Source of the DNA: a virus
Reading direction: 5' to 3' (one strand)
Length of the DNA: 35,991 nt
UHGV virus genome: UHGV-0222783
This document shows, piece by piece, positions 1,257 to 35,813 of this stretch (position 1 is the stretch's first letter; the number at the start of each line of letters is the position of its first letter). The notes under the pieces were generated by a model. The model made no database searches, had not been told where the DNA came from, and was given only the letters and a program-made list of their open reading frames with translations. The position numbers and the translations under genes were made by a program.

Positions 1257-1861
1257 TAAGCAGTTGCCCCTTCTAATTCGTCTCGTCTGATGTTGTAAAC
1301 GTCCTGCGCTTTGTGCTGCTCCGGCGTCCCTTCGAGCATCTTCCACGCTTTGGCGAACGCCTGTTTAAGCTCTTCTACGGTGTTTTTCTGCATTGCTGCG
1401 TCAGTGAATGCTTTTAGAACCTGTTCAGGTGTAAGTGATGGTTTTGATTGCTTTGCTGCTGCGTTCTGCTGATGTTTATGCTCGTCTGTATCTGCATCTT
1501 TCGCATCATCAATGCCGAACAAACCATTGAGGCAATACTTGCGTGCATAAGAGCTTGTAGCTCCCGTAACTTGTGCAGAATCCATTCCTTTCTTGCTTTC
1601 TTCCTCTCGTGCAAGAGCGGTTGCCGTATGACTGTTTTCGCCATCGGTAATAGTTGCCGTGGCTTTCACGTAATACCGATCACCAATCAACACAACTTCA
1701 TCGCTGATTGATAAAAACAGACCGTTCAGTAACGGCTTAACGCCTTCAAGAATATCTTCGCAGCTTCTGTATTTATATTTGCCGAATGAGTTGTACTGAT
1801 TCTTTGGCGCGTTCAGATTCTCCTGAATAGCTGCCAGTCTTGCGTAAAATTCTTTGCTCAT
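1256..1861 (-). CDS. erf: Erf-family single-strand annealing recombinase (P22 Erf-like)
   Basis: Translation MSKEFYARLAAIQENLNAPKNQYNSFGKYKYRSCEDILEGVKPLL... matches the Erf N-terminal domain as recalled. ATG at 1861. Confidence 0.8.
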   Translation of the reverse strand: MSKEFYARLAAIQENLNAPKNQYNSFGKYKYRSCEDILEGVKPLLNGLFLSISDEVVLIGDRYYVKATATITDGENSHTATALAREEESKKGMDSAQVTGATSSYARKYCLNGLFGIDDAKDADTDEHKHQQNAAAKQSKPSLTPEQVLKAFTDAAMQKNTVEELKQAFAKAWKMLEGTPEQHKAQDVYNIRRDELEGATA

Positions 1862-1962
1862 ATGATTGCTCTCAGAATGGACACGGCCCAAGGAAATAAC
1901 GCTGATTTAATACTTCGACTCGGGACAAATTAAGGCATACCCGCATTCCTTCGCGGTCACCA

Positions 1963-2121
1963 TTATGGCGATACCAGAGAGCTTTCTGCGTGTACATGCG
2001 TCTCTGTAACTTGCTCTCCTTCACTGTGGTTGCAAGTGACATGAATATCTCCTTCGTTACCGATTAATTCTTTTATCTGACGAATGAATTCTTCGTCTGA
2101 CCAGTTATCCGTAAAACTCAT
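1963..2121 (-). CDS. small protein (52 aa) in the kil position downstream of cIII
   Basis: Internal ATG at 2121 overlaps the upstream stop (ATGA). MSFTDNWSDEEFIRQIKELIGNEG... Function inferred from position only. Confidence 0.35.
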   Translation of the reverse strand: MSFTDNWSDEEFIRQIKELIGNEGDIHVTCNHSEGEQVTETHVHAESSLVSP

Positions 2122-2288
2122 GGACGGCCTTGTTGTTTCAAAATATCCCAAAGCTTTTCGAGCAAGCTTTTCATTCTTGGTTGTTTAAAGTCTGCTCCGG
2201 TTAAAATGTTTTTTCGTGAATGCTGTACCGATAAAATCGGGTTGAAAGGGCGAACCGATGCCGCCCCTGCAATAGCGAACTGTTGCAT
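2118..2288 (-). CDS. cIII: CIII-like protein (FtsH-inhibitor family)
   Basis: MQQFAIAGAASVRPF...KSLLEKLWDILKQQGRP resembles lambda CIII (MQYAIAG... amphipathic helix ...LLERI...LIDILNQPG). ATG at 2288 preceded by AGGAG. Confidence 0.6.
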   Translation of the reverse strand: MQQFAIAGAASVRPFNPILSVQHSRKNILTGADFKQPRMKSLLEKLWDILKQQGRP

Positions 2289-2473
2289 AGGATGCTCCTT
2301 CTGTTTGATTGCATAACGAAAACGCCTCGAGTGAAGCGTTATTGGTATGCATATAAAAAAGCCCTCACATTGGAGGGCAAAGAAGATTTCCAATAATCAG
2401 AACAAGTCGGCTCCTGTTTAGTTACGAGCGACATTGCTCCGTGTATTCACTCGTTGGAATGAATACACAGTGC

Positions 2474-2662
2474 TTATTCGTCATGCATTTCAGGTAACTC
2501 TTCGTATTCGACGCTCCATACGTTTTCACACCAACTAACTCGCTCATATCTTTTACAGAAAGCAGACCACATAACTAGTGTTCCATCATGGTTTGTTATT
2601 ACTTCTGTAATATCACCAACACTAACAAAACTGGTATTAGAAGCGGTTATTTTTACTTTCAT
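2474..2662 (-). CDS. hypothetical protein (62 aa)
   Basis: ORF track. Start ATG overlaps the upstream stop (TAATG), indicating translational coupling in the PL operon. Confidence 0.4.
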   Translation of the reverse strand: MKVKITASNTSFVSVGDITEVITNHDGTLVMWSAFCKRYERVSWCENVWSVEYEELPEMHDE

Positions 2663-2958
2663 TACTTATCCCCAAGAGCTTTTCTTATTGCTGCGAGACC
2701 TTTATTAACAGCTCCATACCATTCTGGATATGTTGTCGTTGTTCTATTTTTGGTTTGCTTAAGTAATAACTGAAGTGCTTCGAGAAGGTCAGGTGCTGCC
2801 GCTATTAGATTGGCATCTTCAATGCATTGAACTTCCTCACAGATTGCAATATACGAACGCCAGCCTGCGCCATTTTCAAGTGAGTCTGCCTGGATGATTT
2901 TAATCTCATCCCCATCCATCATTATTTCCCACTTACCTTCAGTACCTTTAAATTCCAT
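2662..2958 (-). CDS. Ead/Ea22-like phage protein
   Basis: Contains the motif ANLIAAAPDLLEALQLL, which I recall as typical of Ead/Ea22-like lambdoid early proteins. ATG at 2958 with AGAGG SD. Confidence 0.5.
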   Translation of the reverse strand: MEFKGTEGKWEIMMDGDEIKIIQADSLENGAGWRSYIAICEEVQCIEDANLIAAAPDLLEALQLLLKQTKNRTTTTYPEWYGAVNKGLAAIRKALGDK

Positions 2959-3004
2959 GTTAGCCTCTGTTGTTTATGCCAAAAATAAAGGCCGACTATG
3001 CGGC

Positions 3005-3475
3005 CTAGTAGAATACCCAATTTTCTGTTTCTTGGTTGTGTCCAAAGTTATATTCAATATCTGGTGTTGATGTATCAATATTCTTCATCCCATCAACAAG
3101 AGTTGATACAACAGCCAAATCTTGTTTGATTCTCATTAAATGGTATTTCTTCCGGCGCAATAAACTTTCAATGGCAAGTTTCTTCGTTGGGAATGCAAAA
3201 GATCTTTCTGCATTTTTTGCTACTTTCTTAATTGCATATCTATTTCTCTTTTGTTTCCATTCCTGTAACCACTGATTTGGTGCTGGTTTAAAATTAACAA
3301 TCCAATGCGCAGGAACCAACCATGCATAATGCTCTGTCTGATGAAAAGCTATATATTGAAGTGCGAATATTTTGATTCCATCTTCTTCAACTGTCGCCTG
3401 GAATCTCCAGAAAACAGGCATTCCATCATGTTCAGTTTCTGATTCAGGAAAAGGTACGCTCCATGATTTTGTCAT
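3005..3475 (-). CDS. hypothetical protein (156 aa), PL-operon accessory gene
   Basis: ORF track; ATG at 3475 with GAGGTGA SD. No family recognised by eye. Confidence 0.5.
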   Translation of the reverse strand: MTKSWSVPFPESETEHDGMPVFWRFQATVEEDGIKIFALQYIAFHQTEHYAWLVPAHWIVNFKPAPNQWLQEWKQKRNRYAIKKVAKNAERSFAFPTKKLAIESLLRRKKYHLMRIKQDLAVVSTLVDGMKNIDTSTPDIEYNFGHNQETENWVFY

Positions 3476-3529
3476 ATCTCACCTCAAATAAGTGGCTTGC
3501 TGCGAAAATAAATCCGCTTAAGTTACCTG

Positions 3530-3667
3530 TTATTTATCCCACCAAGTTCCGTATCTATCTATCCAGTTACACCAATCATCGACACTCCATTTTGTTGTGT
3601 CGCATTTTGGCAACTGGCATGAATATCTACCTTCTTTGTAAAGTCGGCGTTTGACTTTCTTGAGCAT
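3530..3667 (-). CDS. small Cys-containing ORF (45 aa), possible zinc-ribbon-like peptide
   Basis: Hand translation MLKKVKRRLYKEGRYSCQLPKCDTTKWSVDDWCNWIDRYGTWWDK. ATG at 3667 with GAGGTGA SD, 8 nt after N stop. Below the ORF-track size cutoff. Confidence 0.3.
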   Translation of the reverse strand: MLKKVKRRLYKEGRYSCQLPKCDTTKWSVDDWCNWIDRYGTWWDK

Positions 3668-3675
3668 GGCTCACC

Positions 3676-4008
3676 TCAATCGTAATAAGCTGGAATTGAT
3701 TTTCCGCGTTGCTTCTGGCGGCCTGAGCAAGTCACACCCATTTCACTGCGTGGCTTGCTGTACCATGTGCGCTGATTCTTGCGCTCAATACGTTGCAGGT
3801 TGCTTTCAATCTGTTCGTGGTATTCAGCCAGCACCGTAAGGTCTATCGGATTCAGTGCGCTTTCTACTCGTGATTTCGGTTTGCGATTCAGCGAGAGAAT
3901 AGGGCGGTTAACTGGTTTTGCGCTTACCCCAACCAACAGGGGATTTGCTGCTTTCCATTGAGCCTGTTTCTCTGCGCGACGTTCGCGGCGGCGTGTTTGT
4001 GCATCCAT
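3676..4008 (-). CDS. N: antitermination protein N (lambda N-like, arginine-rich motif)
   Basis: Internal ATG at 4008 gives MDAQTRRRERRAEKQAQWKAANPLLVGVSAKPV..., the lambda N N-terminus with the Arg-rich boxB-binding motif. AGGAG SD upstream. Confidence 0.85.
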   Translation of the reverse strand: MDAQTRRRERRAEKQAQWKAANPLLVGVSAKPVNRPILSLNRKPKSRVESALNPIDLTVLAEYHEQIESNLQRIERKNQRTWYSKPRSEMGVTCSGRQKQRGKSIPAYYD

Positions 4009-4118
4009 CTGGATTCTCCTGTCAGTTAGCTTTGAGTAACGCGCCGTGATGCTTATCTCCACGGTTGCTGTCTTGCAGCTGCATTTCGCGCTACTCAAAG
4101 CCTTCTGCTTTGAATGCT

Positions 4119-4150
4119 GCCCTTCTTCAGGGCTTAATTTTTAAGAGCAT
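4119..4150 (-). promoter_or_regulatory. nutL (boxA + boxB)
   Basis: Minus-strand reading gives TGCTCTTAA (boxA-like) followed by GCCCTGAAGAAGGGC (boxB hairpin), between PL and N. Confidence 0.7.
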
Positions 4151-4193
4151 CACCTTCATGGTGGTCAGTGCGTCCTGCTGATGGCTTAAAATT

Positions 4194-4261
4194 ACAAGAA
4201 AGATTGTATGTTGTAAACAAGAAATATTGTAAAAAGGGGCGTGAAAAACAAACTCCATTGT
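4194..4261. promoter_or_regulatory. OL operator cluster / PL region (434-type operators)
   Basis: Three 14-bp sites of form ACAA-N6-TTGT: acaagaaagattgt (4194..4207), acaagaaatattgt (4217..4230), acaaactccattgt (4248..4261). Confidence 0.7.
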
Positions 4262-4310
4262 TTTTAAATGAAAAATAGTTTGTTTTTGGTTATCGAGATT
4301 GAGGTGGGGA

Positions 4311-5663
<1,353 letters not shown>

Positions 5664-32867: not shown

Positions 32868-35813
32868 ATGACAGACATTACAGCCAATGTGATTGTATCG
32901 ATGCCTTCGCAACTCTTCACTATGGCGCGTTCTTTTAAAGCCGTAGCCAATGGCAAAATTTATATCGGTAAAATTGACACTGATCCTGTAAATACAGAAA
33001 ACCAGATTCAGGTCTATGTGGAGAATGAAGACGGTTCTCACGTTCCTGTTTCGCAACCAATAATCATTAACGCTGCTGGATATCCGGTATATAACGGACA
33101 GATTGCCAAATTCGTTACCGTGCAAGGCCATTCTATGGCTGTTTATGATGCGTATGGTGCGCAGCAGTTCTATTTTCCTAATGTGCTGAAGTATGATCCT
33201 GATCAGTTACGGCAGCAATTAGAAGACACAGATGGAGCGAATAAATACCCAAAACTTCAGATAGCAAGATGGAGAGACAGTTATGATGTAAGAGGTTGGG
33301 GGGCTATTGGTGATGGTGTTCATGATGATACATCAGCTCTATCAGAATTACTTTCTGTTGCAACAGGTGGTGAAAAGATAGATGGGCGAGGGCTTACTTT
33401 TAAAGTATCAACTCTTCCAGATGTCAGTCGATTTAAAAATGCTCGTTTTTTATTTGAGAGAATACCGGGTCAGCCTCTTTTTTATGCTTCTGAAGATTTT
33501 ATCCAGGGAGAGTTATTTAAAATTACAGATACACCGTGGTACAACGCCTGGACGCAGGATAAAACGTTTGTATATGACAATGTCATCTATGCGCCTTTTA
33601 TGGCTGGAGACCGCCATGGTGTAAATAACCTCCATGTTGCATGGGTTCGCTCAGGAGATGACGGGAAGACCTGGACAACGCCGGAATGGCTTACAGATTT
33701 ACATGAAAACTATCCCACAGTTAACTATCACTGCATGAGTATGGGGGTTGTCAGAAATCGCCTTTTTGCTGTAATTGAGACGCGGACCGTGAGCGGAAAT
33801 AAACTGCAGGTTGCAGAGTTGTGGGATCGCCCAATGAGTCGCAGCCTTCGCGTTTATGGTGGTATAACGAAAGCAGCAAATCAGCAAGTCGCTTATATTC
33901 GCATTACTGATCACGGATTATTTGCTGGTGATTTTGTCAACTTCTCAAACTCTGGTGTTACAGGTGTTACCGGGAATATGACGGTGACTACTGTTATTGA
34001 TAAAAATACTTTTACAGTTACGACGCAAAATACCCAGGATGTGGATCAGAATAACGAGGGTAGATACTGGAGTTTTGGTACATCATTTCACTCGTCACCA
34101 TGGAGAAAAACCAGTCTTGGAACTATTCCTTCTTTTGTTGACGGAAGCACTCCTGTTACTGAGATTCACAGTTTTGCGACGATTAGCGATAACAGTTTTG
34201 CTGTTGGCTACCATAATGGTGATATTGGTCCACGCGAGCTTGGGATACTCTATTTCTCTGATGCTTTCGGTTCTCCTGGTAGCTTTGTTCGCAGACGCAT
34301 ACCTGCAGAATATGAGGCGAATGCATCTGAGCCATGTGTAAAATATTATGATGGCATTCTGTATCTGACGACCAGGGGGACATTAAGTACTCAACCCGGT
34401 AGTTCATTGCACAGAAGCTCTGATTTAGGTACATCATGGAATTCTCTTCGCTTCCCAAATAATGTTCATCACTCAAACCTTCCTTTTGCCAAAGTTGGCG
34501 ATGAGCTGATTATTTTTGGCAGTGAGCGCGCATTTGGTGAGTGGGAAGGAGGAGAACCTGATAACCGTTATGCAGGAAATTATCCAAGAACATTTATGAC
34601 CAGAGTTAACGTCAATGAGTGGAGTCTGGATAATGTAGAGTGGGTTAATGTTACTGATCAGATTTATCAGGGCGGAATAGTTAACTCTGCGGTTGGTGTT
34701 GGTTCAGTTTGTATCAAAGACAACTGGCTGTACTACATTTTCGGTGGGGAAGACTTTCTAAACCCATGGAGCATAGGGGATAACAACAGAAAATATCCTT
34801 ATGTTCACGATGGTCACCCGGCTGATTTGTATTGTTTCAGGGTGAAAATTAAACAGGAAGAATTTGTTTCAAGGGATTTTGTCTACGGAGCCACTCCTAA
34901 CAGAACGCTTCCTACTTTTATGTCGACGTCAGGCGTGAGGACGGTTCCTGTACCCGTTGATTTCACAGATGATGTTGCCGTCCAGTCACTGACTGTCCAT
35001 GCAGGTACATCAGGACAAGTTCGCGCGGAAGTCAAACTTGAGGGTAATTACGCCATTATTGCGAAGAAAGTACCGTCTGATGATGTTACCGCTCAGAGAT
35101 TAATCGTTAGCGGAGGTGAAACAACGTCTTCAGCAGATGGTGCAATGATAACGTTGCATGGTTCCGGAAGCAGTACTCCACGTCGCGCGGTATATAACGC
35201 ACTCGAACATCTTTTTGAGAACGGAGATGTTAAACCTTATCTTGATAATGTAAATGCTCTTGGTGGTCCGGGAAACAGGTTCTCGACAGTTTATCTTGGC
35301 TCCAATCCTGTGGTTACCAGTGACGGAACATTAAAGACAGAGCCGGTCTCTCCTGACGAAGCATTGCTGGATGCCTGGGGTGACGTCAGGTATATCGCTT
35401 ATAAATGGCTGAACGCTGTCGCTATAAAGGGGGAAGAAGGGGCGAGGATACATCATGGTGTAATCGCGCAGCAACTTCGTGATGTTCTTATTTCTCACGG
35501 ACTCATGGAAGAAGAAAGCACAACATGCCGCTATGCCTTTCTTTGCTATGACGATTATCCCGCAGTATATGATGACGTCATTACTGGCCAAAGGGAAATG
35601 CCGCTGACTGATAATGACGGGAGCATCATTGTTGATGAGGATGATAATCCAGTGATGGTAATGGAAGACATCATTGAGCGCGTTGAAATAACGCCAGCAG
35701 GATCTAGATGGGGGGTCAGACCTGATCTCTTATTCTATATCGAGGCAGCATGGCAGCGCAGAGAAATAGAAAGAATAAAAGCTAGGTTAGACTTAATAGA
35801 AGGGAAGCACTAA
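32868..35813 (+). CDS. tailspike: P22-type N-terminal head-binding domain fused to an endosialidase with C-terminal intramolecular chaperone domain
   Basis: 981 aa. N-terminus [42 protein letters not shown] is the P22-like particle-binding domain. Sialidase Asp-box motifs SGDDGKTW and SSDLGTSW. C-terminal region resembles the self-cleaving chaperone domain of K1-phage endosialidases. Confidence 0.8.

Follow-up and report, generated by a model that had tools for sequence, protein, structure and literature searches.

What do the small genes do that a lambdoid phage carries between N and cIII? We asked this of the virus genome UHGV-0222783, a stretch of 35,991 nucleotides that was analysed at its full length (the window) and whose sequence marks it as a mosaic lambdoid E. 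coli phage or prophage. An earlier reading of the letters made without database searches (the sequence-only reading) had pointed to four open reading frames (ORFs) in this interval as candidate anti-defence or exclusion cargo. The four minus-strand ORFs sit exactly where it had placed them, between a lambda-type N gene and cIII. They are named here by their length in amino acids, and the slots given with them are the optional gene positions found in related loci.

3530..3667, minus strand: orf45, a 45-amino-acid basic, Trp-rich peptide in slot 1, right after N (PF17583, phrog_1871)
3005..3475, minus strand: orf156, a 156-amino-acid basic protein of isoelectric point 9.05 in slot 2 (phrog_1636, E 5.4e-112 over residues 1-156)
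2662..2958, minus strand: orf98, a 98-amino-acid acidic protein, first gene of slot 3 (phrog_1273, E 5.2e-32)
2474..2662, minus strand: orf62, a 62-amino-acid acidic protein, partner in slot 3, coupled to orf98 through TAATG (phrog_10407, E 8.9e-43)

Four conserved genes of the leftward early operon

All four ORFs have full-length matches to conserved families of phage proteins. The ratio of nonsynonymous to synonymous change (pN/pS) is below 1 wherever it could be computed, each value coming from few substitutions: 0.05-0.36 for orf156 (0.05-0.08 against HK97, 933W and Bas106 and 0.36 against E. coli H6), 0.07-0.20 for orf98 and 0.35 for orf62; for orf45 the single comparison held no synonymous change and gives no ratio. 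Because of these family matches, the alignments to homologues and the pN/pS values below 1 where computable, we regard all four ORFs as real, conserved genes, beyond chance reading frames. Homologues of orf45, of orf62 and of the N-terminal half of orf98 were also found in unrelated virulent myoviruses (T4-like, RB49-like and ~145-kb Klebsiella and Cronobacter phages). The GC content of the block is 36-41%, compared with 47% for the window and 51% for N. Where the sequence-only reading had found all but orf98 unrecognisable by eye, each of the four falls in a catalogued family (DUF5484 for orf45, phrog_1636 for orf156, phrog_1273 for orf98 and phrog_10407 for orf62); judged by these matches, all four belong to families without an assigned function and none is truly unrecognised.

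The good Shine-Dalgarno (SD) sequences noticed by eye were confirmed, with an ATG start and an SD-like motif for each ORF: GAGGTGA before orf45 and orf156, AGAGG before orf98 and GGGG before orf62. The overlapping stop and start codons, which had been ascribed to several of the genes, are confined to one pair, orf98/orf62 (TAATG). N and orf45 are separated by 8 nucleotides, with the SD of orf45 (GAGGTGA) overlapping the N stop codon; the gap between orf45 and orf156 is 54 nucleotides, and that between orf156 and orf98 is 46 nucleotides and contains a terminator-like hairpin.

In the explanation that we prefer, a lambdoid phage of 434 immunity would carry its cargo here, within the leftward early (pL) operon, as three independently exchangeable cassettes with short conserved linkers between them: orf45 alone, orf156 and the hairpin behind it, and the coupled genes orf98 and orf62. 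Transcription of the four genes from pL, together with N, would begin as soon as lytic growth sets in and, since they lie upstream of a tL1-like terminator, would be largely independent of N. Within this array orf156 would take the physical place of orf28-ral, and orf98 would be a conserved first gene whose translation is coupled to that of a swappable small domain protein. Ral (with orf28) is the restriction-alleviation gene of the lambda pL operon, cIII is an inhibitor of FtsH and Kil an inhibitor of FtsZ. The balance tips modestly towards the four products being non-essential accessory proteins of this same class, which would bind components of the host or of its defences when infection begins. 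From the position of the slot, an anti-defence role is plausible.

An array of optional slots

To type the neighbours we surveyed 80 IMG/VR loci with orf156 and 80 loci with an orf98-family gene, using a panel of 27 proteins. Across the 160 loci the N-cIII interval is a collinear array of optional slots with short conserved linkers between them. With two exceptions, taken up below, the order is N; orf45 or the 51-amino-acid protein of mEp043; orf28-ral or orf156; an orf98-family gene with its partner; ea10 or gp17; an Sf6 gp33-like gene; cIII; and kil. The arrays are headed by N genes of the lambda, HK97 or P22 gp24 type, and orf156 is unchanged behind three different N types. The ral gene was present in 1 of the 80 orf156 loci and in 18 of the 70 orf98 loci that have no orf156 (Fisher test, p 5.6e-6, a value that is indicative since the loci are non-independent).

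The exact combination orf45-orf156-orf98-orf62 was absent from the 160 surveyed loci. Likewise, among the matches listed when 50,697 phage records and 5,426 E. coli genomes were searched at near-identity, none has all four genes; the nearest among them, E. coli H6, E. coli 90-9281 and phage Bas106, have three of the four. The N-cIII position is, as had been supposed from the sequence, a usual cargo slot: lambda, SfI, P22 and ST104 carry other accessory genes there (ral, orf28, sieB, ea10, gene 17 and a gene for a pentapeptide-repeat protein). What is new in the block is how it combines ORF families that had all been catalogued before; the region is a classic lambdoid mosaic, the block is ordinary in kind, and a specialist is unlikely to find it surprising.

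Of the occupants of the interval in related genomes, the pentapeptide-repeat protein of ST104 (orf19; locus L009, 1817-2461) has 214 amino acids, and two E. coli matches (H54 and H55) carry a gene annotated as 'Nmad5 family putative nucleotide modification protein'. Such proteins are the sort of gene expected of counter-defence cargo.

orf156 in the place of ral

The closest named relatives of orf156 are HK97 gp45 and 933W L0079, which match it over the full length and which likewise lie right after N and before the terminator that precedes cIII. The alignments to HK97, 933W and H-19B span 507 nucleotides at 97.6-98.2% nucleotide identity. HK97 and 933W are without the orf98-orf62 cassette, whereas here orf45 precedes orf156 and orf98-orf62 follows it. 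The family is widespread among Shiga toxin (Stx) and HK97-like phages and was found in 598 of the 5,426 complete E. coli genomes (~11%). Its homologues form 33 protein clusters across Enterobacterales, with 40 invariant alignment columns, and full-length members with identities as low as 55% occur in Pectobacterium, Cronobacter, Brenneria, Serratia and Rosenbergiella. When 1.84 billion representatives were searched with a profile, 87 of them matched, and the family stretches to distant phage proteins of 130-155 amino acids (phrog_13631 and phrog_25384), whose function is likewise unassigned. A Pfam scan of 48 family members from the profile search gave no domain.

In position, orf156 corresponds to lambda Ral (with orf28). 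Both occupy the same slot of the pL operon: N (and orf45 if present) lies upstream, the tL1-like terminator downstream, and the linkers on either side are the same, those that flank orf156 being common to the ral loci of lambda, SfI and JCKP02. The proteins themselves differ, Ral having 66 amino acids and orf156 156, with no sequence similarity between them. The AlphaFold model of orf156 (mean predicted local distance difference test, pLDDT, 62.8) combines a three-stranded sheet with short helices, a basic segment of low confidence and, at residues 98-131, a long helix. A basic protein with such a modelled helix is compatible with binding of nucleic acid or protein.

orf98 and its coupled partner

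orf98 has an N-terminal beta region and a conserved helical hairpin (EDANLIAAAPDLLEALQ ... AAIxKALGxx). It belongs to the family of P22 orf78 and ST104 orf18, with which it shares the conserved LIAAAPDLLEAL helix and the AAIxKALG C-terminus; BLASTP matched it to ST104 orf18 at E 1.4e-22 and to P22 orf78 at E 1.8e-4, the latter over the helical C-terminal half. P22 orf78-orf87 and ST104 orf18 also share its slot, between ral and gene 17, although in P22 orf78 and ST104 orf18 the N-terminal half and the central loop are other mosaic variants. As here, P22 orf78 is followed by a small ORF coupled through its stop and start codons, but that ORF encodes a DUF551 protein instead of orf62. The label PF27050 is carried by close relatives of orf98 in precomputed annotations. 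In the AlphaFold model of orf98 (pLDDT 70) the N-terminal beta region is poorly defined and the helical hairpin is confident, with a pLDDT of 85-92 in its helices.

The sequence-only reading had called orf98 Ead/Ea22-like, an assignment that failed in Pfam, BLASTP and profile-profile comparisons. With the Pfam family PF13935, orf98 gave no match at E <= 0.1 and 26 members of its family none at E <= 1, whereas the positive controls, lambda Ea22 and P22 EaD, matched at E 1.1e-28 and E 4.6e-20. BLASTP of orf98 against Ea22 and EaD gave E 0.94 or no match, and hhalign a probability of 0.2%. What the Ead/Ea22 proteins share with orf98 is the general context alone, that of small mosaic early-left accessory proteins of lambdoid phages. 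Gp17 of H-19B and P22 is unrelated to both orf98 and orf62.

For orf62, the match to phrog_16117 (E 1.2e-17) covers profile positions 89-142 of 144. The corresponding protein is ORF076 of the Krischvirus phages RB49 and Phi1, which has 144 amino acids and whose C-terminal domain is 54% identical to orf62 over 54 residues (E 1.4e-19, BLASTP against Phi1). Nothing here corresponds to the N-terminal 88 residues of ORF076, which are unrelated to orf98, so that orf62 represents the domain alone. Salmonella homologues of 62 amino acids were found at 65-71% identity. A membership in DUF551 (PF04448) was rejected, neither orf62 nor its 61-amino-acid variant having a Pfam match; the sole resemblance of orf62 to P22 orf87, the DUF551 partner, is a C-terminal LPE(PP)SE-like tail.

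A small ORF adjoins the stop codon of the orf98-family gene in 79 of 80 loci, overlapping it by 1 nucleotide in 42 and by 4 nucleotides in 32. These partners belong to at least six unrelated families: 52-amino-acid proteins (phrog_6949), orf62 (phrog_10407), proteins of 66-70 amino acids (the C-terminal domain of phrog_2201), DUF551 proteins, and rarer ones of 35, 41 and 89 amino acids. Several of the partner domains (orf62, Bas70-type and DUF551) occur elsewhere as C-terminal domains of bigger phage proteins. One and the same orf98 allele is paired with orf62 in JCKP02 and with the 52-amino-acid protein in H6 and mEp043.

That orf98 and orf62 form an obligate two-protein unit, either a complex of an adaptor with a specificity domain or a toxin-antidote-like pair, would accord with a start/stop overlap kept in nearly all loci despite so many unrelated partner families, and with the occurrence of the partner domains in larger proteins. 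We nevertheless consider it quite unlikely, as the partner type does not track the orf98 variant, no fusion of orf98 with a partner was found, the N-terminus of Phi1 ORF076 being unrelated to orf98, and the conserved 3' end of orf98 could be a mere recombination linker. The two genes may make up a module of two parts, the second of which can be swapped, or the 3' end of orf98 may be no more than such a linker.

orf45, a member of DUF5484

The match of orf45 to PF17583 scored 46.7 bits (gathering threshold 27; E 2.6e-12), with residues 5-42 on profile positions 3-41 of 43, and that to phrog_1871 gave E 1.4e-22. The DUF5484 family includes Sf6 gp36, SfI_0044 and T-even gp55.4. SfI_0044, annotated as similar to Sf6 gene 36, is 98% identical to orf45 and likewise lies directly after a lambda-type N. 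The homologues in T4-like phages have ~50% protein identity, and the T-even members share with orf45 only the core DTTKWSV-DW-ID-G-W. A tblastn search with a query of orf45 plus orf156 returned 947 phage records overall, of which 856 fall in the band below 60% identity; the matches listed in that band are all short orf45 matches in T4-like phages (gene 55.4).

The peptide had been noted as Cys-containing, and three Cys are indeed present. They are not conserved, N, G and I standing at their places in gp55.4 of the T-even phage SP18. Because of this replacement, a zinc-binding peptide appears unlikely.

In E. coli H6 (locus L004, about 2934-3071) an orf45 homologue is present in the DNA in a contiguous alignment of 98.5%, between N and the orf156 homologue, and is left unannotated by RefSeq and the Prokaryotic Genome Annotation Pipeline (PGAP). 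Since PGAP passed over this copy, orf45-type genes are probably under-counted in annotations.

Junctions, hairpins and expression

Pairwise alignments to ten annotated phages and prophages placed sharp mosaic junctions at 3503-3473, 2999-2966 and 2481-2355. The linkers, hairpins and terminator of the interval are as follows.

3473..3503, minus strand: 31-base-pair conserved linker bearing an SD (TTGAGGTGAG), a mosaic junction before slot 2, from alignment end-points
2979..3006, minus strand: terminator-like hairpin AGGCCG-CATAGT-CGGCCT followed by TTATTTTT, directly after orf156, from a scan; minimum free energy (MFE) -9.6 kcal/mol
2440..2469, minus strand: hairpin with a 13-base-pair stem and no U-tract, just after orf62, from folding and alignment
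2353..2378, minus strand: intrinsic terminator GCCCTC-CAATGT-GAGGGC followed by TTTTTT, from a scan; 97% identity to lambda

The first linker is an alignment end-point common to HK97, 933W, H-19B, SfI, JCKP02 and mEp043. The second, at 2966-2999, carries the SD of orf98, and the 3' arm and T-run of the hairpin after orf156 belong to it. The full hairpin is found in the window, mEp043 and Bas106, and its 3' half alone after ral in lambda, SfI and JCKP02. The third junction is a block of 125 base pairs (2481-2355), common to all compared phages, with the 13-base-pair hairpin and the intrinsic terminator. The segment 2425-2472, which holds that hairpin and a small second one, folds with an MFE of -21.7 kcal/mol; the hairpin itself is ~97% conserved in lambda, HK97, 933W and SfI and may serve in RNA processing or stability. 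Scanned against Rfam, positions 1800-5500 gave no match. The terminator, at 2378-2361, aligns with a putative terminator annotated in HK97 and is stronger and more widely conserved than the hairpin after orf156. Its lambda counterpart (about 33,933-33,950) is presumably tL1.

In lambda (locus L006, about 5030-5100) the second linker is followed directly by the third block, which makes this an empty site for the orf98 cassette. In HK97 (locus L002, 2985-3060) and 933W the orf156 stop codon is joined to ACGAATAA, identical to the last codons of orf62. The window positions compared with these two sites are 2966-3006 and 2470-2481. The empty site in lambda and this join suggest that cassettes may be lost or gained at short AATAA-containing junctions.

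All four genes are co-oriented with pL. A scan of 4100-2300 gave no minus-strand promoter-like site, and plus-strand promoter-like sites in the block are no commoner than in shuffled sequence. The first terminator-like hairpin is the one right after orf156, at 3006-2989, so that orf45 and orf156 lie upstream of any terminator-like site. We infer that the block is part of the immediate-early pL transcript, with orf45 and orf156 made with N itself and orf98 and orf62 made with N or after read-through of the modest hairpin. N-dependent expression of the block seems doubtful, because the whole of it lies upstream of the tL1-like terminator and its first two genes upstream of any terminator-like site.

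The surrounding window

The interval is set in a leftward early operon with the following elements.

4118..4134, minus strand: nutL boxB hairpin (GCCCTGAAGAAGGGC), the N-utilisation site of the leftward early transcript, folded and aligned to lambda
3676..4008, minus strand: N, lambda-type antitermination protein of 110 amino acids, the upstream boundary of the block (Pfam N36 E 1.6e-26, phrog_271)
2118..2288, minus strand: cIII, the downstream boundary of the cargo interval (phrog_550, E 1e-22)

Window positions 4183-4096 are 98.9% identical to lambda 35,496-35,583, a stretch with the annotated nutL in it, and near-identical copies of N are labelled antitermination protein N by PGAP. The immunity region (4712-5663) is of the 434 type and is combined here with a lambda-type N and nutL. 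In a PDB sequence search the N-terminal domain of cI matched the solved 434 repressor domain (E 9e-38), and a 434 Cro chain was also among the matches of the cI query (E 4.4e-13). Beyond cIII the operon runs on through kil-like genes, erf, ssb and abc2. A minus-strand ORF of 98 amino acids at 553-849, downstream of erf and the ssb-like gene, encodes a full-length Abc2 anti-RecBCD protein (phrog_656, E 3.9e-56). Because of this gene order the recombination and anti-RecBCD module is, as far as its sequence tells, of the P22/HK97 type and not lambda Red/Gam.

A minus-strand ORF of 134 amino acids at 4311-4715 has an ATG that overlaps the cI stop codon (ATGA), a signal-peptide-like start and phrog_2651 as its sole match. 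It occupies the place of lambda rexAB, and because it is seated there it is probably expressed from the prophage with cI.

What the cargo may do

None of the four proteins matched anything of known function. A PADLOC match of orf156 to Cas1_II (E 0.0097 over 46 residues) is weak and was treated as chance. In PDB searches by sequence and by profile, no match below E 0.1 came up for orf156 or orf98, whether a single sequence or an alignment served as the query; Foldseek against BFVD gave no match at E <= 0.001, and no peptide match was found in the supplements to two published screens of accessory genes. In the literature on DUF5484, PF27050, HK97 gp45, L0079 and P22 orf78 nothing relevant was found.

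In a specific counter-defence reading, orf156 would be an analogue of orf28-Ral in function and, as an immediate-early protein, would inhibit or modulate restriction-modification or some other defence that senses DNA, with orf45 and orf98-orf62 neutralising other defences. The place of orf156 in the ral slot between the same linkers, rarely alongside ral, speaks for this, as do its position as first or second gene after N and upstream of any terminator, its spread in Stx and HK97-like phages and in about a ninth of complete E. coli genomes, and the company of Ral, the pentapeptide-repeat protein and the Nmad5 protein among the other occupants of the interval. Several results weigh against it or, more broadly, against the explanation that we prefer. 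None of the four proteins showed similarity to a known anti-defence protein in PHROG categories, NCBIfam, PDB or the supplements of the two screens, BLASTP of all four against lambda Ral gave no match at E <= 10, and in Pfam, NCBIfam and PADLOC scans DUF5484 for orf45 was the sole match at family threshold. With tblastn against plasmids we found prophage-like records alone and no copies in leading regions, and the models of orf156 and orf98 are both of modest confidence. The slots are not absolute either, since orf28-ral is followed by orf156 in locus L052, where both are present, and the order is reversed to N, orf98, orf156 in locus L072; the Fisher test on ral and orf156 rests on non-independent loci, and positional replacement can reflect shared linkers instead of shared function. 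Distant orf156 homologues lie at other places of the early-left operon, beside xis-int in Pectobacterium; this context and that in the early region of a Vibrio phage were uninformative as to function. On balance we hold this counter-defence function to be rather unlikely in so specific a form. Unlikely, too, is the conjunction in which orf156 is a new immediate-early counter-defence protein replacing orf28-Ral and, at the same time, orf98 and its coupled partner are a two-part module directed at the host or its defences, with the partner giving specificity.

The proteins may instead modulate host physiology or the choice between lysis and lysogeny, unrelated to defence: bound to housekeeping proteins of the host, they would tune growth, DNA metabolism or the decision for lysogeny. 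The close neighbours cIII and kil are of that class, DUF5484 occurs in the T-even 55.x cluster of small early ORFs, of which T4 55.1 and 55.2 target host proteins, and the block encodes small proteins without enzymatic motifs, orf156 being basic with a long helix. Nevertheless, a patchy, optional distribution with rapid exchange of cassettes is more typical of arms-race genes than of core regulators, and no homology points to any given target; we take this to be possible, if doubtful. We judge it very unlikely that the genes are exclusion or defence cargo expressed from the prophage and acting in the lysogen like SieB, Rex or gp17, as the sequence-only reading had also allowed. The same interval does hold sieB and gene 17 in lambda and P22, and the low GC of the block is moron-like, but the four genes are co-oriented with the repressed pL operon with no preceding promoter-like site, no opposite-strand ORF matches a phage family and PADLOC offered the weak Cas1_II match alone. 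The four plus-strand ORFs of 58-79 amino acids in 2588-3654 had no PHROG match; because no plus-strand ORF matches a phage family, the block appears to have no sieB-like gene, and tblastn with lambda and P22 SieB found matches in other loci alone and none in this block. The window has a better candidate, for exclusion as for lysogenic conversion, in the ORF at 4311-4715, which starts with a signal-peptide-like segment and is coupled to cI. A lytic early role is preferred over prophage exclusion because of the likely pL timing and the homologues in obligately virulent phages. Finally, orf45 and orf62 are both short and AT-rich, and the orf45 homologue of E. coli H6 escaped PGAP; that they are chance, untranslated reading frames is still scarcely credible, given an orf45 score above the DUF5484 gathering threshold with T4-like homologues at about half identity, the likeness of orf62 to the RB49-type domain and to its Salmonella homologues, and good SD sequences on both.

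Implications

Any counter-defence factor in this block, if true, would be a new family in the lambdoid anti-restriction and anti-defence repertoire. The most consequential of the four genes would then be orf156, which is carried by HK97-like and many Shiga-toxin phages and occurs in a ninth of the complete E. coli genomes; if this protein did act in counter-defence, the host range of Stx phages and their spread could be affected. The slot map is a compact list of candidate early effectors and, together with the alternation of ral and orf156 and the coupled, swappable partner of orf98, provides leads for anti-defence screening.

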